Assembly (NCBI GenBank): GCA_963820525.1
Contig: CAWGAA010000001.1
Location: 2,784,001 to 2,848,000, forward strand
Length of the DNA stretch: 64,000 nt
Origin: an uncultured Spirochaetota bacterium
Lineage (GTDB): Bacteria > Spirochaetota > Spirochaetia > SZUA-6 > Fen-1364
Direction: 5' to 3'
Part shown: positions 12,407 to 31,054 of the stretch, in pieces
Numbering within the stretch: the stretch's first letter is position 1
How the letters are laid out: each line of letters opens with the position of its first letter
Program-made: the position numbers and the translations under genes
Notes under the pieces: generated by a model
Databases searched by the model: none
Told to the model about the DNA's origin: nothing
What the model saw: only the letters and a program-made list of their open reading frames with translations

Positions 12407-12611
12407 ATTTTACCAGATGCCGAAAGCACCCTCAATCGAGCGGGGGCTTGCTTGTTAAACGATTACAGCCTATTCCTTAATAAGAAAACTCGTAATTAAA
12501 GTTTGCTTATAGAAGTCGCGGCCGATCCTGATTACTATTTTTCCCGATCAATCGAGTTCACCATGAATATCCTTCTTGCAATGGATGATTTTCATGGTGT
12601 ATCATAGGGCC

Positions 12612-13772
12612 ATGGTAGAGCGCGCTTTTATACTCGATAAATTGAAGGTGGCCCTGTCGCGCAGTCGCGTCGTCGTACTGGCCGGGCCGCGCCAGTGCGG
12701 CAAGACGACGCTGGCACGGCAACTTCTCAGCGAGGATTCGGTCAACTACTTCGACCTGGAGGATCCTACCGGCCTTGCTCGACTGGATGAGCCAATGACC
12801 GCGCTCGGACATTTGCAGGGCCTGGTAGTGATCGACGAGGTGCAGCGGCGGCAGGATCTTTTCCCCGTTTTGCGGGTTCTGGCAGATCGTCGGGACAACC
12901 CCGCCCGTTTTCTGATTCTGGGCAGCGCTTCGGGCGACCTTCTGCGTCAGACTTCGGAGAGCCTGGCGGGGAGAATGGAGCGCGTGACAATCAGCGGCTT
13001 TTCGCTGCGGGAGTTGGGCGCAGAAGCGGAACAAACCTTATGGCTGCGCGGCGGTTTCCCGCTCTCCTACCTGGCAGGCAGCGAAGCCGATAGCGCGGAA
13101 TGGCGGAAGAGCTTTATCCAAACCCTGCTTGAACGTGATTTCCCGCAATGGGGCGTCCGCGTGCCTGCCGTGGCCTTGCAGCGCTTCTGGACAATGCTCG
13201 CGCACTATCATGGACAGACCTGGAACGCGGCCGAACCAGCCCGGGCGCTGGGTGTGAGCGAATCCACCGCCCGCCGCTATCTCGATCTGCTGACGGACGC
13301 CTTCCTTATCCGGCAGTTGCATCCCTATTATGCCAACATCAGCAAACGGCAGGTCAAGGCCCCAAAGGTCTCCGTGCGCGACAGCGGGCTTTTGCACCAG
13401 CTTCTCGGCATCAACACGCTGAAGGAACTGCTGAGCCATCCCAAAGTCGGCGCCTCATGGGAAGGGTTTGTTATCGAGCAGGTATTGATGACGGAGCCGC
13501 ATGACGAAGCCCTCTTCTGGGCCACGCATCAGGGAGCGGAGATCGACCTGATCCTGAGGCGTGGCAGCGAGCTTTTGGGCGTAGAGTGCAAGCGGACCGA
13601 CACTCCACGCATGACCCCGTCCATCCGCATCGCCCTTGAAAATCTTGGGCTTGCGCGGGTGGCCGTGCTCTACCCCGGGACGAAGCGTTTTCCAATTACG
13701 GAACGGGTGGAAGCCGTGCCTCTTCAGACGATGGTCAAAGGTATTTCGCTTTTCGAGGGGGGCGAGTCATGA
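12612..13772 (+). CDS. AAA+ ATPase with C-terminal DUF4143-type domain
   Basis: GPRQCGKT, IDEVQ, ILGSAS, ESLAGR, GGFP, EIDL..VECK motifs. Confidence 0.9.
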   Translation: MVERAFILDKLKVALSRSRVVVLAGPRQCGKTTLARQLLSEDSVNYFDLEDPTGLARLDEPMTALGHLQGLVVIDEVQRRQDLFPVLRVLADRRDNPARFLILGSASGDLLRQTSESLAGRMERVTISGFSLRELGAEAEQTLWLRGGFPLSYLAGSEADSAEWRKSFIQTLLERDFPQWGVRVPAVALQRFWTMLAHYHGQTWNAAEPARALGVSESTARRYLDLLTDAFLIRQLHPYYANISKRQVKAPKVSVRDSGLLHQLLGINTLKELLSHPKVGASWEGFVIEQVLMTEPHDEALFWATHQGAEIDLILRRGSELLGVECKRTDTPRMTPSIRIALENLGLARVAVLYPGTKRFPITERVEAVPLQTMVKGISLFEGGES

Positions 13773-15234: not shown

Positions 15235-15249
15235 GCTGAGCGGGCCAAG

Positions 15250-15639
15250 TCTCTTAAGGGGATCAGCTCTATTGAAGAGGGCAATCGGTTTCTTCGGGCT
15301 GTATTCACGGAGAAGCTCAACAAAAAGCTGGCTGTTCTTCCTGTTTCACAGACCAACTTTCACCACCTCGTGGACCACAGACTTGATCTGCGGAGGATGC
15401 TTTGCTGGGAAGAACTACACAGCGTTAGCCATGACCGGGTGGTAAGACACCGTAGCCTTTTGTATCAGATCCTTCGGGACAACCGCCCAAGGCCAAGACA
15501 CAAGGATCATGTGATTGTTCAGGGCTGGTTGGATGGCTCTTTGCATATCTATTTCAAGGGCAAGGAGCTGAAGGTACAGAAAGTGACGGACATTTCCAGG
15601 TAAGAGGTCTGATGGGGACATTTCTAATGAGTCTGGACA
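15250..15639 (+). mobile_element. ISNCY/IS1202-like transposase 3' remnant with right end
   Basis: GISSIEEGNRFL...LCWEELHSVSHDRVVRH...YQI...WLDGSLHI; end has two GGACATTTC repeats and terminates ...GGACA. Confidence 0.65.
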
Positions 15640-15652
15640 ATGCGTAGCACGC

Positions 15653-15685: not shown

Positions 15686-15845
15686 TTTATTTCGCAGGGG
15701 AAAGAGTTTATCTCGCCCAACAGTACTACCTTGATGAAGGGGGTAGTCTATCCTAAGGGCTAGCTATATCAGACTTTCGCAGCCAATCAGCCTTTCAAGG
15801 CTAAGAGAATGCTGAATTCAATAAAGTAGGCTACCTCGCACTGGA

Positions 15846-17822
15846 ATGGAGATGATGAGCGCAACCAAGAAAGCTACAACCTCAAAGTCGTCAAAGATTG
15901 CCTCGGGCTCATCTACAAAAGCTCGTAAGATCACTTTGAGGCCTTTGTCATCACCCCTAAAGGTCAAATCAACTTCCGTATCTGACTCCCATAGGTCCAT
16001 CATGGTGATTTCCGAGAACGGCAAGGAAGTCCGGCTACTTCTACACCGTTTTGCACTCGTCGGGCCCAGCGACAAGATCTTGTTGGACTCGGCACAAGCC
16101 TCCCGAATTTTTGTTGAGTCTGCGGATCCATCTAGAAAGGCCATACCCGTTTCGCCGCACTTTGAGAAAAGGTCAACTTTACGCTTGGGAGCAAGAGACT
16201 ATTCGATTCTCGTGAAGGAAATAACCACTCCAAGCGACCTCAAGGAATACGAGTATCTAGAGGGCTTTCACTATAAGACTTCCTCTGCCATCGTTACTGA
16301 CGAAGATGAGCCGAGCAAAAGCGGCCTCAATGTTGGTGGAAGAAAAGCCATACTTATCGCCTACATCCAAGTTGGCAAGCGCATGATACCTGCCGGGTAC
16401 ATAGATCTCCAAATGCCTTTGCTAATGGTAAAGCCAAGACACGAGCTCTTTAACAACGGCTTTTTCCACCCTGATCGCGATATCTCTTGGGATACATGGG
16501 ATATCAAGAGCATGAGGAAATACGTAAATCTGATTGTTAGGATTGCAAGAATAGTGACAAGCCCCGATCTTAGGGGCTTAGGTCTTGCACGCATAATAAT
16601 CGATGCTGCTAAAGACTATGCCAGAGAACGGTGGCATGTCTATGGCAAGTCTCCACTCTTCATGGAAATCTCAGCTGAAATGCTCAAGTACATGGACTTC
16701 GTGACATCTGCTGGAATGCATTTTGTCGGTAACACCGAAGGAAATCTTTCGAGAGTTCACAAAGATCTACTTCAAATGCAGAGAGGCCAGAAACTCACTT
16801 TTGGGATTATGACACTTCAGAAAAAGTATCTCACGAACTTAAGGCATCTATCGGAAAGTCTACACATCTCTTTTCCAGAGGTGCTCGATAGACTGAAGGC
16901 ACTTACTAAAAACTCTAGCGAAAAAGAGCTTCGATCAAAACTGAATAAATTGAGTGGTCAAGAATGGTTCCTATTCAAAAGAGTGCTCAGATTCCCTATT
17001 CCATATTTTATATGTGGCCTAGATGATGCGTCCGAATCATTTGTACAAAAACACTCACTAACCCCTCCAAGCAAGACTACCCAAAACAAGACATTTCAAT
17101 CTGCAAGGATTGGACTTAAGGATATTAGAGCTACCTCGACATACGAGATCCCAGACAGTGAGCAAGCTCGCGCGATACGTGACTGTTTTGGACTTGATGG
17201 GAATACTTTGAAGGTATCTCTCGTCGGACCTGTCACAATAGAGGCCTCGGGGGGAAACATCATTCTGATTACGGGTCCAAGCGGAAGCGGAAAAAGTGTA
17301 CTTTTGCGAGCAATCGCAGATGACAGTGAGACGAAACTAATTCATACCACATATATAAAAACCGTTGACAAACCATTCGTAGTTGGTTGGCTGACCGAAA
17401 TTAATAGTGATAAACCCATTATTGAATACTTCAGTGGTATTTGGGGAATGGAATCCTCTATTTCTGCATTAAATCAAGCAGGATTGTCCGAAGCATTTGT
17501 ATATCTGAGGCCATATAAACTCTTAAGTAGAGGACAACAATATCGTGCGCGTCTAGCTGCGCTTAGCCTTGGCTCGGCTAACGTTTGGCTTATGGATGAG
17601 TTCTGCGCAGACCTTGATCCCTTCACTGCCCGAATTGTATCAAATAATTTGCGGAAGCACGTTGTGAGAACTGGAAGGATCGCGATAGTTGCCGCAGCAA
17701 ACAACGCTCACTACATAGACGCGTTGATGCCCAACAGGATCATCTACCTTAGGCACAACGGCCGTTGCGAGGTATTTAAATATAAGGAATACATAGATGA
17801 GTTTCGTATCAACGCAAGCTGA
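15846..17822 (+). CDS. GNAT acetyltransferase fused to ABC-type ATPase (COG2401-like)
   Basis: RIARIVTSPDLRGLGLA (GNAT motif A); GPSGSGKS Walker A, LSRGQQYR signature, WLMDEF Walker B; no TM segments. Confidence 0.8.
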   Translation: MEMMSATKKATTSKSSKIASGSSTKARKITLRPLSSPLKVKSTSVSDSHRSIMVISENGKEVRLLLHRFALVGPSDKILLDSAQASRIFVESADPSRKAIPVSPHFEKRSTLRLGARDYSILVKEITTPSDLKEYEYLEGFHYKTSSAIVTDEDEPSKSGLNVGGRKAILIAYIQVGKRMIPAGYIDLQMPLLMVKPRHELFNNGFFHPDRDISWDTWDIKSMRKYVNLIVRIARIVTSPDLRGLGLARIIIDAAKDYARERWHVYGKSPLFMEISAEMLKYMDFVTSAGMHFVGNTEGNLSRVHKDLLQMQRGQKLTFGIMTLQKKYLTNLRHLSESLHISFPEVLDRLKALTKNSSEKELRSKLNKLSGQEWFLFKRVLRFPIPYFICGLDDASESFVQKHSLTPPSKTTQNKTFQSARIGLKDIRATSTYEIPDSEQARAIRDCFGLDGNTLKVSLVGPVTIEASGGNIILITGPSGSGKSVLLRAIADDSETKLIHTTYIKTVDKPFVVGWLTEINSDKPIIEYFSGIWGMESSISALNQAGLSEAFVYLRPYKLLSRGQQYRARLAALSLGSANVWLMDEFCADLDPFTARIVSNNLRKHVVRTGRIAIVAAANNAHYIDALMPNRIIYLRHNGRCEVFKYKEYIDEFRINAS

Positions 17823-19194
17823 AAAGTTTGCAGCGGTTTTCGATAGATCTCCTTATCAGTCCACTGATCCGATCGTTAAAATTCAGTACGTTCAAAAGGG
17901 CAATAATGTTGTTTTTGGTCGAACTCTATCAGGCGAGAACTATGACAAACTAATCTACCTCGGCAAGGTTTACGAGAATACCGCCGGGAAAAACTACCTT
18001 AGTTCAGACGCTTGGCTGGATGTTGGCTACCCGCACGTAATCTATATTACGGGAACGCGAGGAAGCGGGAAGAGCTTTGACTTAGGCGTCTTGATCGAAG
18101 GCATTTCCGAGCTATCTAATCCATCAACAGCGCAGAACAACGTCCAGCCTATCTGCTCGATAGTAATTGATACGCAGAGCCAATTCTGGACTCTAAACTA
18201 TACGCCAAACCCGGCTGTCAAGGAGAACAAGGAGCAACTAGCCGAACTTAAGAAATGGAATATTAGTCCCAATTCTCTGAAGCATTGCAGGCTTTATATT
18301 CCTCCCTCAACCGAGAGAATAACAAACACTGAAACCATATTCCAGATTCGAACATCCGACGTACGACATGAAGAATGGTGTGCTTTAATCGGTGAGCAAA
18401 TATACAGTCCTCAAGGGCATGTCCTTGGCCAAGCTCTTGAGGATCTTTCTGGAAAGGCCTATTCGCTTGAAGATCTGATCTCGTATGTTGCAAATGGAGA
18501 CAATTGGGATAATGTTCCTGAAGTCTCTCGAAATGCAATCGTCTATAAGCTTGAGGGTTACCGTCGAACAGGGCTTTTCAGTGCAAAAGGAATCGACATT
18601 TGCACGCTACTTTCACCTGGTCAGTGTTCAGTATTTCTTTTGCGGGATCTTAGGAACGAAGACAAAGCCCTAATCACTTCTCTGATAGCACGCCAACTTT
18701 CAAGCATCTTGGGTGCTCACCATAAAAAGCTCAAAGTCAGCAAATTCTTCGAAAGAAAGGAAGAGGACGACGGACTTCCAAATACAGTTTGGATGTTTAT
18801 AGATGAGGCTCATGTGGTTGCTCCAAACGGTTCAGTGTCTCCTGCCACCAATGCTCTTATAGATTATGTAAAGCGTGGTAGAGATGCAGGACTGTCCTTG
18901 GTAATGGCCACGCAACAACCCTCTGCTGTTGATGATAGAATATTGAGCCAAGTCAATATCACATTCTCGCATAGACTTACATTTCAAAATGACATAAGTG
19001 CTGCGATAAACCGAATACCTACTAAGCTTCTAAAGGACTTGAAATATGCAGGAAGAGATATAACAGATTTTGGCGACATGCTTCGGTATCTCGAGGCTGG
19101 TGAATGTTTCTTGGGCGATCACAACACTAGCAGAGCTGTCTTGGTTTCTATTAGGCCAAGGGTGACTCCTCATGGTGGTTATAACCCAAGCTAA
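17797..19194 (+). CDS. HerA/FtsK-family ATPase (DUF87/DUF853-like)
   Basis: GTRGSGKS, IVIDTQ, FIDEAH, KRGRDAGLSLVMATQQPS motifs. Confidence 0.88.
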   Translation: MSFVSTQAEKFAAVFDRSPYQSTDPIVKIQYVQKGNNVVFGRTLSGENYDKLIYLGKVYENTAGKNYLSSDAWLDVGYPHVIYITGTRGSGKSFDLGVLIEGISELSNPSTAQNNVQPICSIVIDTQSQFWTLNYTPNPAVKENKEQLAELKKWNISPNSLKHCRLYIPPSTERITNTETIFQIRTSDVRHEEWCALIGEQIYSPQGHVLGQALEDLSGKAYSLEDLISYVANGDNWDNVPEVSRNAIVYKLEGYRRTGLFSAKGIDICTLLSPGQCSVFLLRDLRNEDKALITSLIARQLSSILGAHHKKLKVSKFFERKEEDDGLPNTVWMFIDEAHVVAPNGSVSPATNALIDYVKRGRDAGLSLVMATQQPSAVDDRILSQVNITFSHRLTFQNDISAAINRIPTKLLKDLKYAGRDITDFGDMLRYLEAGECFLGDHNTSRAVLVSIRPRVTPHGGYNPS

Positions 19195-20374
19195 CCCATA
19201 TCTCACAATTAGTCGTAAAATTGGCTACTCTGTCGGCCTTGAATCACTCAACGAACGTGTCTTTGAGCTTGTAAAGCTCTACGATACTGAAAAAGGGCTT
19301 TCCTTTGCTTCATTTACCAATCTTGTAGAGAAGACATATGCTCGCAAGAATGCTGTGGAACATTTTGCCAATTTTTATGGTACACTTAATCTTGTTAGGC
19401 TTGTCGGAAGAGATATTGAGCCGCTTTTCAGATTAGACACTCTTGCTATTCTACGCAGACTCTTCCTTGATGACGAACCAAAATTCTTACTATGTCAACG
19501 AATCATTCTGACCCTGCTAATCATTGAGGCAGACGGGGATGTATTCCTTAATGGCCTCTTCGCTGATTTCAAGCCAAACGAGATGAAGACAAAGCTCGAA
19601 GCGATGTCCTTCACAAAAATCCAGCGTCTACAGACTGTATTTCCGACGAAAGCCTTGTTAGCGCAAATGGCTAGCATAATAAACATCAAAAACCAAACTC
19701 AGAAGAATGCAATTTCAGATGAAAAGCTTGGTCGCTTCGAAAAACGTAAAATGCCACTTGAGATGGGAAAAAGAACTACAAGCCTAGATACTTCAGTTTA
19801 TTTGACGCAAAACATCTCTGAAGACTACCTTGACAAGACCAGCAAGACAAGAAAGGGATGGGCACAAGACTTATTGCTGTTTAAAGGAGAGAAGCGAACG
19901 GCCATAGGGGACAAACTGTTGAGCTTTCTATTTGAGAATATAGTCTCCACCGACATTGAACGCAGTTGTATACTTTATTGGGGCTATAAATCTGATCTAG
20001 ACCGTATTCGAGTTGACCCCTCAAAAATCAGTGCTATTTCCTTCGAAGAATGGGATCTCATCTCTCAGATTTCAAAGGCCTATAAAGGGGAAACTTCCGT
20101 GGGGACACAGAAACTCTCCGATGATCAATTGTACAAGCTGTTCTTAAAAATGCATCAACTTTATAGAGAAGCGTCCTCTTCACGGGGATCTATTCGAAAC
20201 AGTTTACCCTTGTATATCGCTGAGCCAATTCTCGCTGCGTATTGCGTTGCAAAGAACATTCGGTTGCCCGACATAAACGCCTATCTAAAGAAAGAGTTCA
20301 CTCGACCAGTTCGACGTATCCAAAGAATGATAATCCGTGGTACCCTCGGAGCGCTTTACTTCATGAAGGAATAA
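19172..20374 (+). CDS. Uncharacterised 400-aa protein (possibly winged-helix rich)
   Basis: Long ORF overlapping or abutting both neighbours; no catalytic motif recognised. Confidence 0.75.
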   Translation: MVVITQANPYLTISRKIGYSVGLESLNERVFELVKLYDTEKGLSFASFTNLVEKTYARKNAVEHFANFYGTLNLVRLVGRDIEPLFRLDTLAILRRLFLDDEPKFLLCQRIILTLLIIEADGDVFLNGLFADFKPNEMKTKLEAMSFTKIQRLQTVFPTKALLAQMASIINIKNQTQKNAISDEKLGRFEKRKMPLEMGKRTTSLDTSVYLTQNISEDYLDKTSKTRKGWAQDLLLFKGEKRTAIGDKLLSFLFENIVSTDIERSCILYWGYKSDLDRIRVDPSKISAISFEEWDLISQISKAYKGETSVGTQKLSDDQLYKLFLKMHQLYREASSSRGSIRNSLPLYIAEPILAAYCVAKNIRLPDINAYLKKEFTRPVRRIQRMIIRGTLGALYFMKE

Positions 20375-20375
20375 T

Positions 20376-21260
20376 ATGGCTGTACACATCACCAAAGAGT
20401 TTCTCAACGATCTAAGAGAGGCCGATGATCTAAGGTTTGTCAGACAAGTATTGAATCACACGATAGACCGTGACGGTGATTTTGCAGACGACAAGGATGA
20501 TCATAGATATAAGGACATCGATGATGCTTGGATACGCTGCGTCAGTAAAGGCGCAACTGCTTTCCGGGTAATATTCATAAGAAAAGGTTCAGACATATAT
20601 CTCTATAGAGCTGGACATCATGACATTGAAGATCATTTGGCGCCTGCGCGCTCCTTTTCCTCGTCTATTACACTGGCAGAAGGCCCAATCAAACAGCCTC
20701 AAGAATATAAAGAGCAAGTTCCTCAGCAGATTTTTCTTAAGAACTCTGAACCTGCCTTCATAAACAAGTTCCTGATAAGCATGTATCACTTGAGGCATCA
20801 TGAGATCTACATTGTGTCTCCTTTTCTGGACTTGCCGATTCTATCTAGCAAGCATCACTTTGGTAGATTCCTTGACAAAGCAAAGGAAGAGGGAACCGAT
20901 GTTATTTTGATCACGCTACCTCCAAAAAATGACGATGAGATTACTGTTTTTAGAGACTTGGAGTTACGAGATATTCGAGTATTCTTTCTTCCTAGACTGC
21001 ACACAAAGCTATATATCTTTAATGTGGACCTTGAATCGAGAACTTTCTATCAGCGCGGTGTCTTCGGAACAGCTGTACTCGGATCCTCCAATTTGACATG
21101 CCCGGGTCTTGGTTTCGATGAACTGCAGCCTAATGAAGAGCTTTGTTCCACGTTTCACACCGATAGAATTGACGAATTGAAGGATTATGTTCTAAAGTTG
21201 ATGTTTCGCTCTCAGGACTTTACAGATTTTATGCAAAGAAGAAGGAGACAGCAACGATGA
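20376..21260 (+). CDS. RelE/ParE-like N-terminal domain fused to PLD (HKD) nuclease-like domain
   Basis: N-terminus VHITKEFLNDL...FRVIF...LYRAGHHD; C-terminus IVSPF, LHTKLYI, GSSNLT, NEE. Confidence 0.75.
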   Translation: MAVHITKEFLNDLREADDLRFVRQVLNHTIDRDGDFADDKDDHRYKDIDDAWIRCVSKGATAFRVIFIRKGSDIYLYRAGHHDIEDHLAPARSFSSSITLAEGPIKQPQEYKEQVPQQIFLKNSEPAFINKFLISMYHLRHHEIYIVSPFLDLPILSSKHHFGRFLDKAKEEGTDVILITLPPKNDDEITVFRDLELRDIRVFFLPRLHTKLYIFNVDLESRTFYQRGVFGTAVLGSSNLTCPGLGFDELQPNEELCSTFHTDRIDELKDYVLKLMFRSQDFTDFMQRRRRQQR

Positions 21261-22396
21261 TTGCTCCGGAGACATTTTATAAAGCTGCCAATCTGAGGGA
21301 CAATCCTTTTCGAACAAACCCTGCCGCCGAGGCAGATCCTCGAAGAGGCATCTGGATAGGGTATCTGAATGAAAGAAACACGTTGACGAAGTATCTCCAG
21401 CGTTCTTTGTCTGACAACGTTGGGAATATCAACTTTGTAATGATTTACGGCGAATTGGGTAATGGCAAATCGCACGCTCTGCTTTGGTCTCAGCATTTGG
21501 TGCTTGTTGCAGAAAACGAGAAATACAACAGTGTTGCATATTATATTCAAAGCCTAAAGCGCGACAAAGGCAAAATGTCATTTGTCTCAGCGTTCAATGA
21601 AGACATTGTTGGCAAGTCCAATCTTGCGGGAGATCTCCTAATCTATAAACAGTTTGTCTCTGAATGCATAATCGAGTATAAGCGAGATAACGCGCTCGGA
21701 CCTGATGTAAGCAATGATAAGGTGGCTGAGCGACTCATTCCATCAATGGATATGCGTAATACGCTTACAAAAATTCTGAAATGTGAAACCGAGGACAATA
21801 TAAGAGGCCTCTTAGGCACTGACACAGACTACTCTGCGATGCTGCTCTTCTGCCAAATTGTGAATCTGTTTGTTCACCCTTATGAACTTGCAGCAGGCAA
21901 GAAGAGATACAAGAAATGCGTCTATCTCTTCATTGACGAGATGGACGTTCTAGGTGAAGTCCCTCCCAAAGAAGCCAGAGATGTTAACGCCTTGTTACGA
22001 CATATCTATGACCTTTGCCCAAATTGCTTCTTCCTTGGGCTTGGCTTCACTGCAACTGCCGCTGAGCTTGGGGTTCTTTTCGATGAATTTGTTCTTTCTA
22101 GAGTTTCGAAGCAAATCACTCTGCAGTTCATGCAGCCTGTAGAAGCTCAGGACTTCATTCGCCAAATACTCAATACAGTTCGAATTGATAACAAGAAGCA
22201 CATTGATTATTTCCCATTCACGGAAGACGCGGTTGGGACAATAGTCTCACGAATGGTGTCAATAACTCCACGAAAAATCGTTAATCAAATGCTGCAGATA
22301 CTCGAAGAATGTCGCCTAGCAGATCTTGATCCGTCAAAGGCTCCGATCTCTACAACCCAACTCGATGAAAAGGAGATATGGGAGATGGTGGATTGA
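21257..22396 (+). CDS. P-loop AAA+ ATPase (Orc1/Cdc6- or STAND-like)
   Basis: NPF N-terminus, GELGNGKS, LFIDEMD, FPFTEDA, TPRKI motifs; ATGA overlap with upstream gene. Confidence 0.82.
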   Translation: MIAPETFYKAANLRDNPFRTNPAAEADPRRGIWIGYLNERNTLTKYLQRSLSDNVGNINFVMIYGELGNGKSHALLWSQHLVLVAENEKYNSVAYYIQSLKRDKGKMSFVSAFNEDIVGKSNLAGDLLIYKQFVSECIIEYKRDNALGPDVSNDKVAERLIPSMDMRNTLTKILKCETEDNIRGLLGTDTDYSAMLLFCQIVNLFVHPYELAAGKKRYKKCVYLFIDEMDVLGEVPPKEARDVNALLRHIYDLCPNCFFLGLGFTATAAELGVLFDEFVLSRVSKQITLQFMQPVEAQDFIRQILNTVRIDNKKHIDYFPFTEDAVGTIVSRMVSITPRKIVNQMLQILEECRLADLDPSKAPISTTQLDEKEIWEMVD

Positions 22397-23256
22397 GCAA
22401 GAAAATTGTCGGCGCAAAGACGAAGGCTCAGAAAGTCCTCGATGGCTTTGCGCAGTCAGAATGTCTCCCCATAGTGCAATCCATATCATCCATGCTAATT
22501 CGACTCCAAACAGCGTTTGACCTCCTTGGCAAATCGATTATGCACACTGACCAGAACTCTTCTCCTGTCATAGATCCTTCCACCATCCTTGAAGCAATTG
22601 AAAGCATGAAGCTTTCAGAGTTTTCTCTTGATAAAGATGCTGTAGATAATGCTCGCAAATGGGCAATTTTCCAACTTGCCACGACCTATAGCAACCTTGG
22701 AGAGTTGATTCGACAACACTGTGCCGAGCGAGCGATAAAGATAGACGGCGGCCCACGATCTTTCATTCTTGCTAATTTTCTGCATATTGTAATCGATTTT
22801 GAATCAAATGCCGTGTTTATAGAAGACAAAAAACTCGAGCGACTATCCACTTCCGCTATTCTTAAGTTGATCGATGCGGAAATTTCGAATGAAAACAAAA
22901 GAAGCCCGAGCTCGAGTGAATTCCTACTTGCTTGTTATCGGGCATATAGCTACCTCATAAAGGCTTCTGCTCAAGAGTATGGTACTCCTATGAGAGTTCG
23001 CGATGTTTACAAACAGATTATTATTGCGAGTCAGCCGGAGAAATTTTGGAAGAACCCCAATCGCGCAAACCTATTTGAATATGATGAACATCTCTTCAAG
23101 CGAGATCTTGTACGACTCTTTCTTGAGAACTCTTCGGCCCTTCCAACTGGTGAAAGTATTGAGCTATTGCCTACTGCCTTTCCTAAACAAGGGATTCCAA
23201 TCCCTTTGCCCGAAGGCACAAGATACATCGGTCATATTGCCTTCCGCAGAGCATAA
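22378..23256 (+). CDS. Uncharacterised 292-aa protein
   Basis: Long ORF coupled to both neighbours; helical, with a possible C-terminal wHTH. Confidence 0.75.
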   Translation: MGDGGLSKKIVGAKTKAQKVLDGFAQSECLPIVQSISSMLIRLQTAFDLLGKSIMHTDQNSSPVIDPSTILEAIESMKLSEFSLDKDAVDNARKWAIFQLATTYSNLGELIRQHCAERAIKIDGGPRSFILANFLHIVIDFESNAVFIEDKKLERLSTSAILKLIDAEISNENKRSPSSSEFLLACYRAYSYLIKASAQEYGTPMRVRDVYKQIIIASQPEKFWKNPNRANLFEYDEHLFKRDLVRLFLENSSALPTGESIELLPTAFPKQGIPIPLPEGTRYIGHIAFRRA

Positions 23257-23258
23257 CA

Positions 23259-24566
23259 ATGCTTGAGCTTTCTATTGAGACTGCTAGAAGGATCATAAGC
23301 CATCTAAAATCGGGAACTACTCCTATCGATTGTGTTCAACATCTCAACGTTGGCAACGAGAAGTGGTATTCTGCTGCAGAACGGCAACTTAAGGATATTT
23401 CAGTTGATGGGGATTCTTTGGTTAGATTCATAAACGGCTATTACGGCGACGGTAAGACGCACTTCCTTGGAATGCTAAGGGCGATAGCTTTTTCGAACAG
23501 GTGGGCGGTGTCTTATGTCTCAGCTGAGAACACTCCATTACACAAATTTGATGTCGTTTATTCTGAAATCATTCGGAACCTTAGCATTCCCCGTTCTTTG
23601 ACACTTCCAGAATGGATTGCCAAAGAAGATTGTAGAGGTGCACCAGCAATACTTGGAGCGCTTTTCTTTCGCTTTTACTTTGAGGCATACAGATTATCAG
23701 ACAACGCTGGCTTACGAAAAGAAAGAGTAATCGAAACTATTCGACATAGGGTAGCGACATTTTGTTCCCAACCGGATATCTCGGAGCCTCTCGGAGTCGC
23801 GATTAGGTACTATTTCGAGGCTATAATAAAGGGAGACTCCTCAACCGCTCATTCGCTTTGTGAATGGCTTGAAGGAATGGATGCCCGCGTTGACGGATTG
23901 CCTGTTCTGAAGAGGATCGATAAGCTTCGATCCAGAGACGCAAGTCGGGGACTATCGATAATCACCAAGGCCTCGGGCATCTCTGGAGTTCTTATACTGA
24001 TCGATGAGGCCGAGCGGATCATGGAACAGTCCCGATCTATACGCAACAAGAGCTACGGTGTTCTTAGAGATCTCTTAGATAATGCGGATGACCATGGCGG
24101 AATGACCTCAACCATCTATTATGTTGCTGCTACCCCGGAAATGTTTGAAACTGCAAGCGGTTTTGCTGAATACGACGCACTACGTTCGCGGCTTTCTAAC
24201 ATCGCTATCGCCTATGCCCCCGACTTAATAGATTGGCGCGGTACTCTTGTTAACCTAGTGAAGACCCCAATGAGTCCCGAGAACCTATCTTCTTTAGCGC
24301 GAAAAGTTATCGGAATCCACTCTATTGCCCGTCAATGGAATCCATCTTCTATCCTTTCTGAGGACTTGATCGATAAGATTATTGAAAAGGTAGTTGCTGG
24401 CGTCTTTTCATCTTCCAAGCCTCGTATAGTAACCTCTTTCTTCGCTAATCTGCTTGAGCTTCTGGAACAGAATAGAGAATATCCGCTAAACGATGGTATC
24501 GAAAGCGTATTGTCCTACATAGTGCCAATCCTCAAGACGAAGCCAAAAGCAAAGTCTTGGGAATAG
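23259..24566 (+). CDS. BrxD/DUF2791-like ATPase (copy 1)
   Basis: ARRIISHLKSGTTP...LNVG, GYYGDGKTHFL, LILIDEAE, ATPE, YDALRSRL motifs. Confidence 0.85.
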   Translation: MLELSIETARRIISHLKSGTTPIDCVQHLNVGNEKWYSAAERQLKDISVDGDSLVRFINGYYGDGKTHFLGMLRAIAFSNRWAVSYVSAENTPLHKFDVVYSEIIRNLSIPRSLTLPEWIAKEDCRGAPAILGALFFRFYFEAYRLSDNAGLRKERVIETIRHRVATFCSQPDISEPLGVAIRYYFEAIIKGDSSTAHSLCEWLEGMDARVDGLPVLKRIDKLRSRDASRGLSIITKASGISGVLILIDEAERIMEQSRSIRNKSYGVLRDLLDNADDHGGMTSTIYYVAATPEMFETASGFAEYDALRSRLSNIAIAYAPDLIDWRGTLVNLVKTPMSPENLSSLARKVIGIHSIARQWNPSSILSEDLIDKIIEKVVAGVFSSSKPRIVTSFFANLLELLEQNREYPLNDGIESVLSYIVPILKTKPKAKSWE

Positions 24567-25699
24567 ACCCAATGATTTCAAACCAACTAAAGCTCAGGCG
24601 GAACATTCGCTACCTCAAGAGAGGCGTATTCCCGCCTGAAGACATTGAACAATTTACTTTTGGTCGCGAGCGTGAATTGGCTGTCATTCAGAAAAAGCTA
24701 TCCGAAGTAAAGGATGGTTGCTGTAGATCTCTCTTTATTCAGGGCGTGTACGGACGAGGGAAATCACATTTATTAAAGTCAATTGAGGCCTCAGGTCTAC
24801 AGAGAGGATTTGCTGTGGCTTGGGTTACAATAGACGGATATGCGCATGCCTTCAATCACCCAACTAGGTATCTGCATTCCATTTCGGAAAGCATTCGCTT
24901 TCCATCCAGTCCTTATCGAGGTCTTGCGGCCAACGCTCGTGCTTGGTTATCGGGCGACAAACGTGAGACCCTTCTTTCATATCTCAGAAGCTCTCGCAAT
25001 ACTTGGATGTCTTTTGCACTTCAATCAATTGCAAGAGATCATCCTTCGTTTCTCGAAAACCATTACAACAGCATTATTGAGAGTCGAGACCTCTTGGGCA
25101 AGAACGGTAAACAATGGTTTGAGCTGGTCGTAGAACGGCTAGATGATATTAGCCGTTTATGTAAGCTTGTAGGACACGGCGGAGTCATTTACCTTTTTGA
25201 TGAGATTGAATCAATCGCCACCCAATTGTCCACGATTAGGCAGAGGCTATTGTCCTATGAGTTTTTAAATATGCTTATCGATGAACGTCGACATGCCCAT
25301 AGCTTTCTTGCATTCGCGGCTACCCCAGATTTTGGAAATAAGATATTGGAAGATGTAGCAGCTATTTCAAACTATGAAGCTGATTATGCTGATGCATGCA
25401 GATTCATTAGGAAATGGATTTCTAACAGCGTAGACTGCATAAATATCAACAGGTTATCAAAAGACTGTCTCTTCCTTCTCTGTGAGCATATTCGAACTAT
25501 TCATGAGAAGGCGTATGAATGGAAATCAAACGGGGCAGTATCCTCGGAGAGCATTAGGACGTTGGTTAGCGAGTGTTTCGCAAAAAACCTTGGAACGAGA
25601 GAGATTGTCAGAACAGTCGTTCATCTTCTTGAGGTCCATGAGCAGCTCTCTCATACGCATTCTTCCAGTCATAGCAGACTGAACGACGAAATCAAATGA
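24557..25699 (+). CDS. BrxD/DUF2791-like ATPase (copy 2; start may be ATG 24572)
   Basis: LKRGVFP...FTFGREREL, GVYGRGKSHLL, YLFDEIE, AATP motifs. Confidence 0.82.
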   Translation: MGIDPMISNQLKLRRNIRYLKRGVFPPEDIEQFTFGRERELAVIQKKLSEVKDGCCRSLFIQGVYGRGKSHLLKSIEASGLQRGFAVAWVTIDGYAHAFNHPTRYLHSISESIRFPSSPYRGLAANARAWLSGDKRETLLSYLRSSRNTWMSFALQSIARDHPSFLENHYNSIIESRDLLGKNGKQWFELVVERLDDISRLCKLVGHGGVIYLFDEIESIATQLSTIRQRLLSYEFLNMLIDERRHAHSFLAFAATPDFGNKILEDVAAISNYEADYADACRFIRKWISNSVDCININRLSKDCLFLLCEHIRTIHEKAYEWKSNGAVSSESIRTLVSECFAKNLGTREIVRTVVHLLEVHEQLSHTHSSSHSRLNDEIK

Positions 25700-25741
25700 A
25701 AGTTTGACCATTGTCTCAAGAAGTCTATTAAGATATTTGTG

Positions 25742-25960
25742 TCACTTATTGCTATCCGCATGCTCTTCGCTCAACTCCGCTTCGGCATCAGAAATTGTCA
25801 AGATAGACAAAGCTGCCGCTTTGCTTATGCTTCTGAGACTGACCTATATAAGAACCGTTTGAATCTTGATGGTTTCTCAATCCCGAGGCATCCTCCTGGC
25901 TCCTTTTTCTGCCAGCCATACCTCTCAAACTCGCGCATGAGAGCACTGTAGCTGCATCGG
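25742..25960 (-). pseudogene. Degraded C-terminus of an XRE/ImmA-IrrE-like regulator
   Basis: MREFERYGWQKKEPG...EKPSRFKRFLYRSVSE, then shifted frame ISKAAAL, resembling ImmA/IrrE family tails. Confidence 0.5.
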
Positions 25961-26038: not shown

Positions 26039-27701
26039 TTACCCCTTCACCTCCAGTATCTCCTCAGGTATATGTGTAATAAGCTTCACCAGTTCCTCGA
26101 ATCTAAAGTCAATGTCCATCACGGCATACATCTCCTTCTTGGAGTTGTAGATCGGCATCGCCGCCGTCATGATCAGCTTGTCCGTGTACTTGGAGAAAAA
26201 GAGATCCGAGTAATACGGCTCTCCGGTCTTCAGGACCGCGACAAACCAGTCATGCTTCCTGAAGTCCTTGTTCATGAGGTTTCTGAAAAGACTCTTCTCC
26301 CCGCGCTGGGTGTGCGCCTGGGAGATGCGCAGGCCCTCCAGGTTTGTCACGGCAAGAAGCTGGATGGAGGCCTCCCGCGTCACCACGTCATGGAGGTAGC
26401 TCTCCATGCGCTCTGCATCCAGGGAGCGCACCTCCTCTGAGACGGAGATGTGCTGGGCGATGTGGCGGGCCTTTTCAATCGCGGCCTCTTTAGCTTTCTG
26501 GAAGTCGGAGACGAAAAGCGAGGGCAGGAAATGCTTTGCCTGCGCCACAAGCTCATCAGCGGAAATGCTTGTGGTTCGGCCTTGGGCATACTGCTCAGTG
26601 ACCCAGGCGTTGATGTGCTTGATGCCGGGGTGGCGCTTGACCACCGGCTCCATGGCCCTGCCCGTGAGCTGCGGGATGTTTTTGTTTATCCATTGCGCAA
26701 TTCCCGCCATGCCGGATTTGTCCGTCACCATCACGCGGATGGGCCTGTTCAGAAGAGCCTCAGTATCAAAAATGTTATAGATCTCCGGGTTCTTGAGGAT
26801 GCCGTCCGCGTGGATGCCCGCGCGGGTCACGTTGAACTCGACCCCACAAAGGGATAGTTGGGTGCAACGGGAGCCTGGATCTCCGTCCGGAAATAGTCAG
26901 CAATCTCCGTGATGACACGGGTGTTCATGCCATCCGGCGTTCCCTTAAGCCCTATGTACTCCACCACCGCGGCTTCAAGCGGCGGGTTTCCCGTGCGCTC
27001 GCCAAAGCCCAGCACCGTGGCGTTTAGCGCGGAACATCCGTACAGCCAGGCGGATGTGGCGTTCACGTGCACCTTGTGAAAATCGTTGTGGCCGTGCCAC
27101 TCCAGAAGCAGAAGCCGTAGATGTCCGCGCGCGTAATATCTTCAAAGTGACAGCGCGGCCGTATGCCCTCCTCAAGCGCTGATTTCACAATGGCAAGGTA
27201 GTCTTCCATGACCTTGGCGCGGTTTGACTTGAACTTGAGAAACACGTGGTAGTCTGAGACAGAGGTGAGGATGCCCGTCTCCTTGAGGCCTAACCCCTTT
27301 ACTATAGACAGATCCTTTGCGTCAGCGCAAATCCATCCCGTCACCTCGGGGAACGGGTGTCCCAGGGCAAGGCAGGCCTCTACCGCCTGCGCGTCCCGCT
27401 TGGAGTACAGGAAGAACTCGCTTTATCTGATCACGCCCTTGGGGCCGCCCAGCTTGTGGAGAAGCCCAAAGATGAGGGCAATCTGCTCCGGGGCATACGG
27501 CGGCCGGGCCTGCTGGCCGTACCGGAAAGTGGTGTCCGTTATCCAGATGTCCTTGGGAGGGTTCAAAGGCACTTCCAGGCCGTCAAAGAGGATGCGCGGG
27601 ATATCGGAATAGGGGAATTGCTCCCGGTAGAGGTTGGGTTCCGCGGGAGATTCAAGGGGGAACGTGCGCCTGACAGGCAAAGGAGAGAAGGTGCTTTGCA
27701 T
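26039..27701 (-). pseudogene. HMGL-like (Re-citrate synthase / isopropylmalate synthase-type) enzyme with C-terminal Cache-like domain, disrupted
   Basis: DTTFR.GQQ, EWHGHNDF, GFGERTGN, TRAGIHADG spread over four frames; TAA at 27423-27425, internal deletion near 27108, frameshift near 26843. Confidence 0.8.
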
Positions 27702-27846: not shown

Positions 27847-28278
27847 TCATGCTAGACCGCAAAAGCCTATCACTTTTTCAGCCAGCTCGCCCAAATCCTT
27901 CCGCGCCTCAGAAAGCGCATAGTCAAGGAACTCTGCCAGCGGATCTGTATCCCTCTCCCAGTATGGCTCAACAAAAGAGATGCCATATTTCTTTACCAAT
28001 CGGTCGAGAGCAACGGCGCAGACGAATACATCATCAATGTATCCCGCTGGGCCGTAGATCTTTTCCGGAAGCAGGTCGTTCGGTACAATCAAATAGCCCA
28101 GGACGCAGAGAATAGTCATTCTGTCTTCCGCTTGTAATTCCGGCCGGTCAAGGACGCCGGACAAAGCCTTGAAGATCGCGGGGAGGTAATAAATGTATTC
28201 CTTGATAGAACCGTGATAGGCGTTGATCTCCGTTTCCAGAAAATCGTGATAATCCTCAGGCATTTGTGCTTTTGCCAT
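27847..28278 (-). CDS. YkvA/DUF1232 family protein
   Basis: LGYLIVPNDLLPE..YGPAGYIDD motif; overlaps the helicase stop. Confidence 0.85.
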   Translation of the reverse strand: MAKAQMPEDYHDFLETEINAYHGSIKEYIYYLPAIFKALSGVLDRPELQAEDRMTILCVLGYLIVPNDLLPEKIYGPAGYIDDVFVCAVALDRLVKKYGISFVEPYWERDTDPLAEFLDYALSEARKDLGELAEKVIGFCGLA

Positions 28279-31054
28279 CGCCAAGCTCCTTGCAGATGAA
28301 TTGATAATGGCATGCAGGACAGCGGGAGGGGTCTTTATTCAGTGGAAAAGATTTGGCTTTAAGACCATCAGAGACTGAAGAGAGAAGACTTTTTGCTGTT
28401 CCATCATCATAATCGAAATCAATGCATTGACTGTCAAAAAAGGTGTATGTGGCCATTCGTTGGATGGCGGTATCCACAAGACAGTGGCGGTAAATGCCAA
28501 GCTGGTCTTTGACGCCCGTTTCCTCAATGCCTTCACGTGTACGTGCCTTGAAATCAACCAGCGTGTTTTTGCCGGTATTATCCCGAGCCACCAGATCAAC
28601 CTTCCCTCGGACAATCGTGGTGCCGTCGATGTGTACAAACGGCTTTTCGAAAGAGTGAATCTCGCGGAACTCTTTTACTGCAAAGGCAAGGTATTTAAGG
28701 GTGAGGCCAAGGTAGCTCTTCTTGAGCTTTTCATCAGATTCTTCGTCATAGATGGGGATCCATGATCCGTTTATGAATCCCTGGATATCGCCCTTGGTCA
28801 CTTTTTTACCATTTTTCAAGGCCCAGTTCACTTTCTGCAGAACATTGTGAATGATAACTCCTTGTCGCTGCATCGGTTCCGCAGAGGAAGCGAATCCATA
28901 GAAGTAATTGATCTTGTAGCGGAACGGGCAATCCCGGTAGGTATGGACGGCGCTGTAGCTCAGGGATGTCACGGAAAGCGGAGAAATGTAGGAGTTGTCC
29001 ATCCGTATATCAGTGTCGATTTCCTCCGTGACATATCCCTTGATCATTTCGATAAAACGGGAGGGCCGCGCTTTTCTGACATTAATTTTCTCAGGAACTG
29101 TGATCATTAGGAGATCCTGGGCTCGAGTGATTGCCACATACAACAGCCTGAGTTCCTCCTCGAAATGCCTTTTCTCATCAGCCGTTTTTATCTTCATGAG
29201 ATTATCTGGGATCGGGATGCCGCAGACTGGTTCTTTTTCCCGATAGCGGAGAGGAAAATCTCCCTCGATCAACGAGCAGACGACCACGGCTGGGAACTCC
29301 AGGCCCTTTGCCTTGTGCACCGTCATGCATTTGGCCGCTTCCGTGCTTTCAACAAAGACCTGGTCCATTCCCTTGTCCATTGTCTTGTTGTAGAGCAGCC
29401 ATAAAAGGTCTTTCGCGGACGGCCGTGAGAAACGCCGTTGGTAACCGTCAACAATCCTGGTAAGCTGGGCCAGGTTTAAAAGCTTCTCCTCATTTTCTGG
29501 GCAGGGATGATCGAAGAGCAGCGACAGATATCCGGAGAGCTTGAAGATTTCATACAGAGCGTCGAGCAAGCCGATCTCATTTTCTTCTATTCTTTTCTTG
29601 GCTAGATTCAGCTCTACCAGGACTCGGCTATCCTTGCGATTTCTGATGCCGAGCGCTGAAGCCTTTTTGTCTGAATTGATTGCGTTGAGGCTGGAGTTTC
29701 GCGGAAGGTTGCGGAGCACGTCCAGGGTCGTGCGCGAGAAAGAAATCACCTCATTGTCAAAAAGATCGGGCCGCCACCAATCGCTCCAATCCTTGAATCG
29801 TGTTTCAGCTATCAAGCTTTGATGCAGATAGCTGAAGATGTTGATAACGTCCCGGATCTCCTTCCGCTCCAGAAAGCGGCCGTCGCTATCCGTGGCGAAT
29901 GCCAGACCGTGTTCCTGCAAAGCCGCGGTAACATCGGTTGCCAGGCTTCTTTTTCGATAGAGAAAGGCGCAGTCGCCTATGGAAAGCTTTCCCTGTGCAA
30001 TCTTTTTTTTCAAAAACAGAACAGCATTTTGAGCCACGGCTCTCCTGTTTTCCCCGTTGATGAGGATAATCTCATTTCCCTTGGAGCGATGGGCCTCAAG
30101 TTTTTCCTTGATTTTAGCTTCCAAGAGCTTGTTGGCAGTGTCAACGATGTTTTTTGTAGAACGAAAATTGGTGTTCAAAGTAAAAGACTTTGTCTCTGGA
30201 TACCGGCAGGAGAATTGCGTGAAGCTTTCCCGCACTGCTCCCCGAAAACCGTAGATGCTCTGGTTTTCATCCCCAACGACAAAGATGTTTTTATGGTCCG
30301 AAACGATATGCCTGATGATTTCATTCTGTATGGGGTTGGTGTCCTGATATTCGTCCACGAGCACAAAGCGGAACCGCTCCTGGACAGGCGTGCGGACGGC
30401 CCGAATATCTGAAAGCATTTTCAATGCGATGCTTTCAAGATGTGCAAAATCAACGAGTTTTTCCGCGCGTAATAATGCCACATACCTCTTATAGCTTTCG
30501 ATAAGTGCCCTGCCATCCTCGGTTTCCACGCCCATCTTTTCTATCACAGCGGCTAATGCCTTTGGTTTAATGTCGTTTTCTGTGATGGTGTTATAGAGAA
30601 GGCATACCTGATCTTCTGGATTGCCTGCGAATCCTGCCGCTTTGCTGATGAGATTACGCCAGCCGTGTGGACCATTGAGACCCAGCCGGTATCTGTTTGC
30701 GATGATAAAAAGCTTCTGGTTCTCACTGTCAAGAATGTTGAAGGAGGCGCCAAAATCTTGAAAGACGAAATGGTCTTCCATGATCGTCTTGCAGAGAGAG
30801 TGGATGGTTGAAACGTGAACTGCCTTCGCGTTTTCTCCTATTGAGAGAAAAAGGCGAGTGCTCATCTCCTCCGCGGCCTTTTCCGTAAAGGTCACAGCCA
30901 GGATACTATTCGGTTGGGTTTTTTTCTCTTCTATGAGAAACTTTATCCGCTCAATCAGGACCCGGGTCTTGCCGGAACCCGGTCCGGCAATGACTATTGC
31001 GGGTCCCAAATAGTGGTGCGCTGCATCTCTTTGGCGGTCGGTGAGCTGGACCAT
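28256..31054 (-). CDS. UvrD/PcrA-like SF1 helicase fused to PD-(D/E)XK nuclease with 4-Cys cluster
   Basis: AGPGSGKT, DEYQD, VGDENQSIYGFRGA, TVHKAKGLEF, YVAITRA; C-terminal CPFRY, GKVDL, VDFK, CPAC...C. Confidence 0.9.
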   Translation of the reverse strand: MVQLTDRQRDAAHHYLGPAIVIAGPGSGKTRVLIERIKFLIEEKKTQPNSILAVTFTEKAAEEMSTRLFLSIGENAKAVHVSTIHSLCKTIMEDHFVFQDFGASFNILDSENQKLFIIANRYRLGLNGPHGWRNLISKAAGFAGNPEDQVCLLYNTITENDIKPKALAAVIEKMGVETEDGRALIESYKRYVALLRAEKLVDFAHLESIALKMLSDIRAVRTPVQERFRFVLVDEYQDTNPIQNEIIRHIVSDHKNIFVVGDENQSIYGFRGAVRESFTQFSCRYPETKSFTLNTNFRSTKNIVDTANKLLEAKIKEKLEAHRSKGNEIILINGENRRAVAQNAVLFLKKKIAQGKLSIGDCAFLYRKRSLATDVTAALQEHGLAFATDSDGRFLERKEIRDVINIFSYLHQSLIAETRFKDWSDWWRPDLFDNEVISFSRTTLDVLRNLPRNSSLNAINSDKKASALGIRNRKDSRVLVELNLAKKRIEENEIGLLDALYEIFKLSGYLSLLFDHPCPENEEKLLNLAQLTRIVDGYQRRFSRPSAKDLLWLLYNKTMDKGMDQVFVESTEAAKCMTVHKAKGLEFPAVVVCSLIEGDFPLRYREKEPVCGIPIPDNLMKIKTADEKRHFEEELRLLYVAITRAQDLLMITVPEKINVRKARPSRFIEMIKGYVTEEIDTDIRMDNSYISPLSVTSLSYSAVHTYRDCPFRYKINYFYGFASSAEPMQRQGVIIHNVLQKVNWALKNGKKVTKGDIQGFINGSWIPIYDEESDEKLKKSYLGLTLKYLAFAVKEFREIHSFEKPFVHIDGTTIVRGKVDLVARDNTGKNTLVDFKARTREGIEETGVKDQLGIYRHCLVDTAIQRMATYTFFDSQCIDFDYDDGTAKSLLSSVSDGLKAKSFPLNKDPSRCPACHYQFICKELGDGKSTNA

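Follow-up and report, generated by a model that had tools for sequence, protein, structure and literature searches.

What does an acetyltransferase of the GNAT fold do when it is fused to an ABC ATPase and encoded at the head of an operon? We consider this question for a 64,000-nucleotide stretch of DNA from an uncultured Spirochaetota bacterium (GCA_963820525.1, contig CAWGAA010000001.1, forward-strand positions 2,784,001 to 2,848,000; hereafter the window), in which the fusion gene, gene 1, is the first of eight overlapping or abutting genes (15846-25699). Its partner proteins are of DNA-handling types and include a HerA-type ATPase (gene 2), a putative recognition protein (gene 3), a predicted nuclease (gene 4) and an AAA+ ATPase (gene 5). 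Judged by its sequence, gene 1 is a fusion whose enzyme family is a predicted one, and the cassette around it is an unnamed candidate defence system of the HerA/BRC kind. The reading that we favour, in which gene 1 would be the DNA self-marking enzyme of a BRC-like five-gene defence system, has in our estimate a little less than an even chance of being right.

The GNAT-ABC fusion in gene 1 is real and far beyond chance. Pfam places ABC_tran at residues 463-586 (E 8e-10, above cut-off) and a GNAT match, below threshold, at residues 232-262. A protein search found 304 relatives among 8000 scored candidates, and the best 120 of these share 43-69% identity with gene 1 (its own protein excluded), most of them over nearly the full length. 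The start of the gene is doubtful: residues 1-28 have a pLDDT below 50, and the database copy P0001 (606 residues) begins 52 residues downstream. In an alignment of 61 homologues, from which residue conservation was read, the acetyl-CoA motif R243-G-L-G246-L-A248 lies within a full GNAT motif A whose R232, R235, V237, P240, R243 and G244 are invariant (61/61), with G246 kept in 59 and A248 in only 35. H142-Y143 of the GNAT domain is likewise invariant. All 61 homologues also retain the ABC residues of Walker A (G477, G480, G482, K483), the signature (S561, G563, Q564), Walker B (D584, E585) and the D-loop (D589, L590, D591), as well as H622. An acetyl-CoA motif and a complete ABC ATPase in one chain had been reported in a preliminary description of this sequence; both are present, but "complete" needs qualification, as reading the alignment of the 61 homologues revealed no Q-loop glutamine and the switch histidine, placed in A-A-A-N-x-x-H, is slightly shifted in position.

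The AlphaFold model of the whole protein (pLDDT 85.5) has four parts: an all-beta domain (residues 38-117), the GNAT core, a helical insertion (301-385) and the ABC domain. The first and third of these had been overlooked. The beta domain is the least conserved region of the protein (mean column conservation 48%), and the helical insertion lies inside the GNAT fold, directly before its last strand. Whole-protein fold searches were dominated by ABC matches and uninformative for the N-terminal domain; modelled separately, residues 112-410 (pLDDT 92.1) matched GNAT structures at Z scores of up to 12.8. A search for an extended fused form among proteins of 1153-3290 residues found none, which is weak evidence.

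The ABC domain has a compact, transporter-like fold (Z 20.4 against MetN) that is not OLD/SMC-like, and its best family and fold matches are transporter ATPases. These matches would fit an orphan transporter ATPase fused to a detoxifying acetyltransferase, with a function unrelated to the downstream genes. We consider this very improbable: the family matches fall far below curated cut-offs, HerA is the next gene wherever the contig allows, and a tree described below places the ABC domain with its phage and ASCH-fused relatives. The earlier statement that the operon holds no permease was borne out, since none of its eight proteins matched a permease family in Pfam or NCBIfam, scans that work by family and include no membrane-helix prediction. 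A transporter subunit was rejected on the grounds that no permease family occurs among the eight genes and the four conserved followers are not permeases.

Relatives of gene 1 of the cassette type were collected at 49 loci (L001, L003-L050), and gene order was counted only where the contig has room for the gene concerned. On this basis gene 1 is followed by HerA at every one of 41 loci, gene 3 comes next at 34 of 35, and genes 4 and 5 are in place at 27 of 27 and 25 of 25, respectively; the sole exception to gene 3 is L048, where HerA diverges past residue 341. Genes 6-8 are present at 2 of 21 loci with room, and we rejected the idea that all eight genes form one fixed system because they are absent from the other 19. 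Across 17 complete cassettes, which include two near-duplicate pairs, the pairwise identities found for one of the five genes track those found for the others (rho 0.69-0.89). The most conserved of the five is HerA (58%); gene 3, at 31%, is the least so, which would suit a specificity subunit. Further, the cassette has a lower GC content than its flanks at all 15 loci checked, a search of 40 related genomes did not recover gene 3, and 300 genomes of the phylum contain no full-length match to gene 1. The best other gene 1 score in those 300 genomes is E 1e-24 and, among the matches listed, covers the ABC part only. Given the conserved order, the low GC content and the patchy occurrence, the unit consists of five genes, is rare and has moved horizontally. 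A scan of the genome collection with the single gene 1 sequence yielded only 2 loci. Flanking repeats, tRNA genes and promoters showed no excess over shuffled sequences.

No full-length model for any of genes 1-6 exists in PADLOC 2023, and profile searches of the PDB with genes 3, 4 and 5 gave nothing significant. The FokI-like lead for gene 3 has no Pfam support and no match to the BRC winged-helix protein, which is BrxA-like and tripartite (DUF4007), and family scans of genes 3 and 5 detected no restriction-endonuclease-fold domain. In gene 4, Pfam ParE matched the RelE-like domain weakly in 3 of 22 members (best E 3e-4), and three HP0894 toxin entries were its sole PDB matches (E 0.27-0.4). 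Residues D42, H43, R54, R64 and R78 of this domain are nevertheless found in all 22 homologues, whereas the HxK motif of the PLD domain is intact in 13, including the present one, and replaced in 9. Given this pattern, the constant effector of the cassette is probably an RNase. Gene 5 matches AAA_22 weakly in 20 of 20 members, and its profile reaches E 0.086 against the 1363-residue BRC ATPase, a BrxC-like multidomain protein (DUF6079). Gene 7 passes Pfam BrxC_BrxD (172 bits) but fails NCBIfam BrxD (128 against a required 350).

What gene 1 might modify is suggested by its relatives. A profile search recovered 258 cluster representatives at E 1e-30 or better, and gene 1 matches PHROG 886 and 11143. 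Its ABC half matched 69 phage and 936 plasmid records, typically beside ParB-like genes; in phages Cyrano and Nican01 the order is ParB, ParB, ABC, GNAT, and in Jace a ParB gene is followed by an ABC-GNAT fusion. The GNAT half matches Cyrano CYRAN_122 (probability 96%, E 3e-9) and the ABC half matches Jace gp86 (99%). At 19 distant metagenome loci the ABC ATPase is a separate gene, followed by a GNAT of the same family in 17 and by the contig edge in the other 2. These split-pair GNATs have the HY motif, motif A, the helical insertion and the last strand in common with gene 1. A scan of 62 of the 94 neighbouring open reading frames (ORFs), at 13 of the 19 loci, found a ParB-like gene right after the GNAT at 10, a small terminase at 5 and a large terminase at 2. 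Phage-like contigs (L051-L068) carry ABC, GNAT, ParB and terminase genes in a row. In several of them (L054, L059, L060, L063) an esterase-like gene (PHROG 3341) lies upstream on the opposite strand and could possibly encode a deacylase.

The prediction of an acyl modification is reportedly due to Iyer et al. 2013. The JGI label "ABC-type ATPase with predicted acetyltransferase domain" presumably corresponds to COG2401, and a literature search on "COG2401" returned no relevant paper. A later paper (Iyer et al. 2021, PMC7824862) states, in its accessible text, the prediction that an ABC-coupled GNAT modifies a DNA base with an acyl group of uncharacterised kind. DNA acylation by such a unit, which the preliminary description had put forward, is thus a prediction already in print and not new. 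Gene 1 is likewise a GNAT plus ABC unit, both halves of which are homologous to the ParB-associated phage pair. It differs from the unit of Iyer et al. in its order (GNAT, then ABC), its extra N-terminal beta domain, its chromosomal location without ParB, and its coupling to HerA, a recognition-type protein, a nuclease and an AAA+ ATPase. The family likeness to the set of Iyer et al., whose named example is pT24 (QAX98348.1), was drawn through the phage pair.

A second line of kinship leads to ASCH domains. Pfam ASCH was found at the C-terminus of 3 of 42 longer representatives scanned, and 12 C-terminal tails of gene 1 relatives align as ASCH-like. In a tree of 52 hand-picked ABC-domain rows, the cassette rows lie on one side of a 100/99 branch and the ASCH-fused rows are set off by another (97/94); the two sets share a 96/86 group that leaves out the phage rows. 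YqfB-type ASCH proteins hydrolyse N4-acylcytosines, N4-acetyl-2'-deoxycytidine included (PMC6972931, accessible portion), so an N4-acylcytosine is suggested as the product in the gene 1 family. According to the available text of a further source, other ASCH proteins erase N4-acetylcytidine (ac4C) from tRNA (10.64898/2026.02.27.708502). By analogy, the ASCH kinship points to an N4-acylcytosine without deciding between DNA and RNA. Together, the phage pair beside ParB and terminase genes and the ASCH-fused sister clade suggest base acylation.

Druantia DruA was matched by 8 of the 42 longer relatives scanned, 2 of them above cut-off; the matching proteins have 780-860 residues. These distant relatives match DruA of Druantia type I (PF14236), whereas gene 1 has no DruA match and its operon no DruE helicase. 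A group of distant GNAT-ABC relatives of 780-900 residues (P0224-P0265), several of them with DruA matches, has a long insertion and a C-terminal helical extension.

Two GNAT enzymes that act on nucleic acids allow a closer comparison. Phage Mu Mom, invoked earlier as a precedent for DNA modification, superposes on the gene 1 GNAT domain (PDB 8BV8; Z 12.4, root-mean-square deviation 3.4, 162 aligned residues), a likeness that proved to hold at the level of fold only: 226 chains reach a Z score of at least 8, and the leading matches, largely protein and small-molecule acetyltransferases, have tied scores. A search against Mu Mom as a single sequence gave a profile probability of 0.1, and the phage-GNAT profile gave E 1.4. 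The 44 Mom loci fetched are 85-100% identical, too alike to yield a useful Mom profile. Membership of the Mom family was rejected, as there is no sequence-profile match and gene 1 keeps the acetyl-CoA loop. According to the accessible part of a paper on Mom (PMC13219725), that enzyme uses Gly-tRNA and not acetyl-CoA, and it has an H58/Y59 pair and an essential helix-turn-helix-like DNA-binding insertion. The resemblance of gene 1 to it is one of position: H142-Y143, at the end of the first helix, mirrors H58/Y59, and both proteins have an insertion before the last strand. By contrast, the Mom sequence lacks the R-G-x-G loop and the ATPase that gene 1 has. By this analogy gene 1 may be like Mom in gripping DNA.

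TmcA and NAT10 are ATP-dependent RNA cytidine N4-acetyltransferases that use acetyl-CoA to make N4-acetylcytidine. Like gene 1, they combine an ATPase and a GNAT in one chain, with an acetyl-CoA loop, a base-acylation logic and a matching fold (TmcA is at Foldseek rank 3, E 8e-4; NAT10 has Z 11.9 against the gene 1 GNAT). Gene 1 differs in having an ABC ATPase and not a helicase-like one, in sitting in a defence-type operon and in that no tRNA-binding domain was identified in it. Gene 1 could acetylate RNA in the TmcA/NAT10 manner, with a mark that would either shield host tRNA or rRNA from the RelE-like RNase or itself act as an effector that is released on infection and blocks translation. 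The shared ATPase and GNAT logic and motif A speak for this alternative, as do the ASCH fusions, which would fit ac4C, and the RNase-like domain, which is the invariant part of gene 4. We nevertheless regard it as unlikely, given that the phage pair occurs in a DNA context, that genes 2, 3 and 5 are of DNA-handling types, and that TmcA and NAT10 do not rank above other GNATs by fold.

Protein acetyltransferases are also among the top fold matches. They could indicate a sensor and antitoxin, in which the ABC domain senses an infection cue and the GNAT domain acetylates the product of gene 4 or HerA and so keeps the nuclease inactive until infection. AriA restrains AriB in PARIS, a loose parallel. 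The strict coupling of gene 1 to a toxin-like gene would fit such a role, and pairs of an ABC ATPase sensor with a nuclease are common in defence as far as the accessible sources go; PARIS itself is described in PMC12839542 (available text). Set against these points, the GNAT and ABC pair exists in phages without any of genes 2-5, which ties the ABC domain to the GNAT and not to the cassette nuclease, and the ABC fold is compact and transporter-like. On balance, we find a sensor and antitoxin rather improbable.

The favoured reading, a DNA self mark, draws on the company that gene 1 keeps. A plasmid search seeded with HerA gave two records, the closer of which (28% identity over 90%) is a locus on a plasmid of the haloarchaeon Haloplanus (L226; NZ_CP098519.1, 106074-124451). 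Its genes are TGT, QueD, QueE, QueF, a BrxC/D-type ATPase, a PglZ-like protein (called from its motifs), HerA and a small GNAT, that is, a BRC-type system with a complete-looking deazaguanine pathway, which matches the BRC systems in the accessible part of Rakesh and Krishnan 2026 (PMC12839542). The cassette resembles BRC, as described there, in combining HerA, an AAA+ ATPase, a nuclease and, as candidates in the cassette, a winged-helix-type DNA binder and a base-modifying enzyme. A GNAT self mark has been proposed for BRC as well (PMC12839542, same portion). In the L226/BRC-type locus, the slot analogous to gene 1 is filled by base-modifying enzymes. The cassette differs from BRC in lacking PglZ, TGT and a BrxC-sized ATPase and in having a RelE-like and PLD protein as its effector, and the BRC GNAT that we examined is a stand-alone protein of 165 residues, similar to gene 1 at motif A only. 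PglZ was found neither in the eight operon proteins nor in the 140 flanking ORFs described below, and TGT was not found in the operon. The PglX methyltransferase, PglZ and BrxHI helicase of BREX were not found in the operon or the flanking ORFs. Membership of BREX or BRC was rejected for want of PglX, PglZ and TGT. In the available portion of Rakesh, Aravind and Krishnan 2024 (PMC10853773), HerA/FtsK-capture systems with an Orc/Cdc6 ATPase resemble the cassette in their HerA, AAA+ ATPase and mobile neighbourhood and in a fast-evolving FokI-like winged-helix protein, of which gene 3 would be the candidate counterpart. They differ in that those described there have no modification enzyme, and GNAT-ABC goes unmentioned in that portion; they also have an active nuclease of restriction-endonuclease fold and an inactive one inserted in the AAA+ protein, a fold that the family scans did not detect in the cassette. 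A description of the five-gene cassette was not found in the literature searched (Krishnan 2020, Iyer 2013 and the BRC supplement may cover it), and the terms GNAT, acetyltransferase and ABC do not occur in the main text of the YprA preprint.

Gene 1 had also been said to stand where a methyltransferase would be expected. Family scans found no methyltransferase among the eight operon genes, nor did PADLOC models (E 1e-8) find one among 140 flanking ORFs (at least 140 residues, within 6 kb of the cassette) of 26 loci. The absence thus stands, but no cassette with a methyltransferase in place of gene 1 was found among these loci, all gathered through gene 1, and the expectation is one of analogy.

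Defence-type neighbours occur in 7 of the 26 loci, a count made without a background control. They comprise WYL, PDC-S01, S11, S15, S21, S41 and S69, SoFic, AbiEi, PD-T7-1 and a type II endonuclease; ordinary ABC subunits, a relaxase, a transposase, a control protein and RmuC were left out of the count. WYL-domain regulators lie upstream of the cassette at L005:1204-2199 and L016:4983-5954 (both by PADLOC) and at L001:834-1802 (by clustering). Relaxase, resolvase and transposase genes adjoin the cassette in some loci, and such neighbours, together with the patchy occurrence and low GC content, would suit a selfish addiction or maintenance module of mobile DNA, in which the mark or acetylation quiets a toxin and loss of the island kills, without real anti-phage benefit. 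This alternative would also agree with the failure to find the whole cassette in the viral contigs or plasmids scanned: viral contigs gave no relative when scanned with profiles of genes 1, 4 and 5, and plasmids gave no match to gene 5. A set of five large, co-diverging genes, three ATPases among them, exceeds what addiction needs, and the parallels to BRC and HerA-capture, like the defence neighbours, argue against it, so that we give it little credence.

The argument for a DNA self mark starts from what is observed, namely domains, motifs, gene order, horizontal spread and relatedness to the phage pair and to the clade fused to ASCH. From these we infer every step of the following sensing chain. 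The ABC domain would dimerise on ATP, and hydrolysis would engage or remodel duplex DNA. The GNAT domain would then acylate the exocyclic amine of a host DNA base, most likely with acetyl taken from acetyl-CoA and with N4 of cytosine as the best guess for the position, while the helical insertion would probably grip DNA as that of Mom does. Gene 3 would read the DNA site, and the AAA+ ATPase and HerA would load and translocate on DNA without the mark. The effector, gene 4, would halt translation through its RelE-like RNase, with the PLD DNase active in some lineages only. We think it quite likely that the role of the cassette is defence. Given defence, DNA is slightly more probable than not as the substrate of gene 1, and given DNA, the specific base and acyl group (N4 of cytosine, acetyl) seem to us evenly balanced between right and wrong.

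Several points weigh against this reading. No experiments on the ABC-coupled GNAT family were found in the literature searched. The cassette has neither ParB nor ASCH, and evidence from relatives that do is indirect; K-x-x-T-x-R is retained in only 3 of the 12 fused ASCH tails, so many of these may be readers, and ASCH proteins act on tRNA too (10.64898/2026.02.27.708502, in its available text). The Mom fold score is tied with those of unrelated GNATs, and no sequence-profile match to Mom supports it. The invariant part of gene 4 is RNase-like, with the PLD motif often lost. An RNase effector fits abortive defence, has itself no need of a DNA self mark and leaves room for RNA or a partner protein as substrate. 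The gene 3 and RelE assignments are weak. The count of defence-type neighbours lacks a background control, and all loci were located through gene 1, so that versions of genes 2-5 without it would be invisible.

A bolder form of the favoured reading would make the cassette restriction-modification-like. ATP-dependent acetylation of a DNA base, probably to N4-acetyl-deoxycytidine, would supply its self mark; the enzyme pairs that phages and phage-plasmids carry beside packaging genes would mark their own DNA in the same way, and the RelE-like RNase would be the main answer to unmarked DNA. Taken as a whole, we regard this form as unlikely. To our knowledge, the self marks of bacterial DNA defence are methyl, phosphorothioate and 7-deazaguanine modifications, and in the literature searched no bacterial defence system was described as using an acetyl-base self mark. 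If true, it would mean new DNA chemistry and a programmable base-acylating enzyme, and it would explain a gene pair of hundreds of phage-plasmids, as the plasmid matches to the ABC half suggest. The cassette would offer a built-in genetic readout, being a compact five-gene unit with a nuclease that is expected to respond to the mark. Should RNA or protein turn out to be the substrate, the cassette would nonetheless count as an unnamed defence system. The coordinates of gene 1, its parts and its partners are collected in Table 1.

Table 1. Gene 1, its domains and motifs, the genes that follow it and the surrounding island (positions in the window).
Feature	Position	Strand	Remarks
Gene 1, GNAT-ABC fusion, 658 aa	15846..17822	+	conserved part from near nt 15957; start uncertain
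N-terminal all-beta domain, residues 38-117	15957..16196	+	secondary structure of predicted model
GNAT domain, residues 118-392	16197..17021	+	motif A R243-A248 at nt 16572-16589
ABC ATPase domain	17106..17795	+	Pfam, alignment, fold
ABC motifs	Walker A 17274-17297; signature 17523-17537; Walker B 17586-17600; H622 17709-17711	+
Gene 2, HerA/FtsK-type ATPase, 465 aa	17797..19194	+	overlaps gene 1
Gene 3, fast-evolving protein, 400 aa	19172..20374	+	FokI recognition-domain-like by language-model features (score 0.88), lead only
Gene 4, RelE/YafQ-like N-terminal domain (about 1-90) and PLD-fold domain	20376..21260	+
Gene 5, stand-alone AAA+ ATPase, 379 aa	21257..22396	+	weakly BrxC/BrxD-like
Gene 6, accessory, 292 aa	22378..23256	+	in 2/21 related loci
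Gene 7, BrxD-like ATPase, accessory	23259..24566	+
Gene 8, second BrxD-like ATPase, accessory	24557..25699	+	divergent
Low-GC island	15800..25800	.	genes 42-45% GC, GC3 41-46%, genome 60%

Some further observations concern the surroundings of the cassette. Among genome records, just one other copy of the eight genes (L001:9917-19913) is near-complete; it has many frameshifts, probably assembly errors. At L008:15099-16691 and L042:6886-8490 a common gene of 530 residues directly follows gene 5 as a distinct accessory module, and it has no Pfam match at 1e-4. At the left edge of the island in the window, an open stretch of about 121 codons (15238-15640, plus strand) is followed by a sequence like the end of an insertion sequence. 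We take this stretch to resemble the C-terminal end of an ISNCY/IS1202-type transposase; it has no Pfam match at 1e-4 and is present in a single copy in the genome. Upstream of the island lies a gene for an AAA_14 and DUF4143 ATPase (12576-13772, plus strand). Downstream, on the minus strand, a gene split into several short frames (26039-27701) is either a pseudogene or the product of assembly frameshifts, its last piece having a weak homocitrate-synthase-type domain and a Cache domain. It is followed (27847-31054, minus strand) by a UvrD-like helicase with a C-terminal PD-(D/E)XK nuclease (932 residues) and then a DUF1232 gene, a region of about 49% GC close to the island. No RNA dataset containing the stretch was listed; three freshwater-sediment DNA runs, all of one study, contain contigs that match it almost without differences and are possibly its source.

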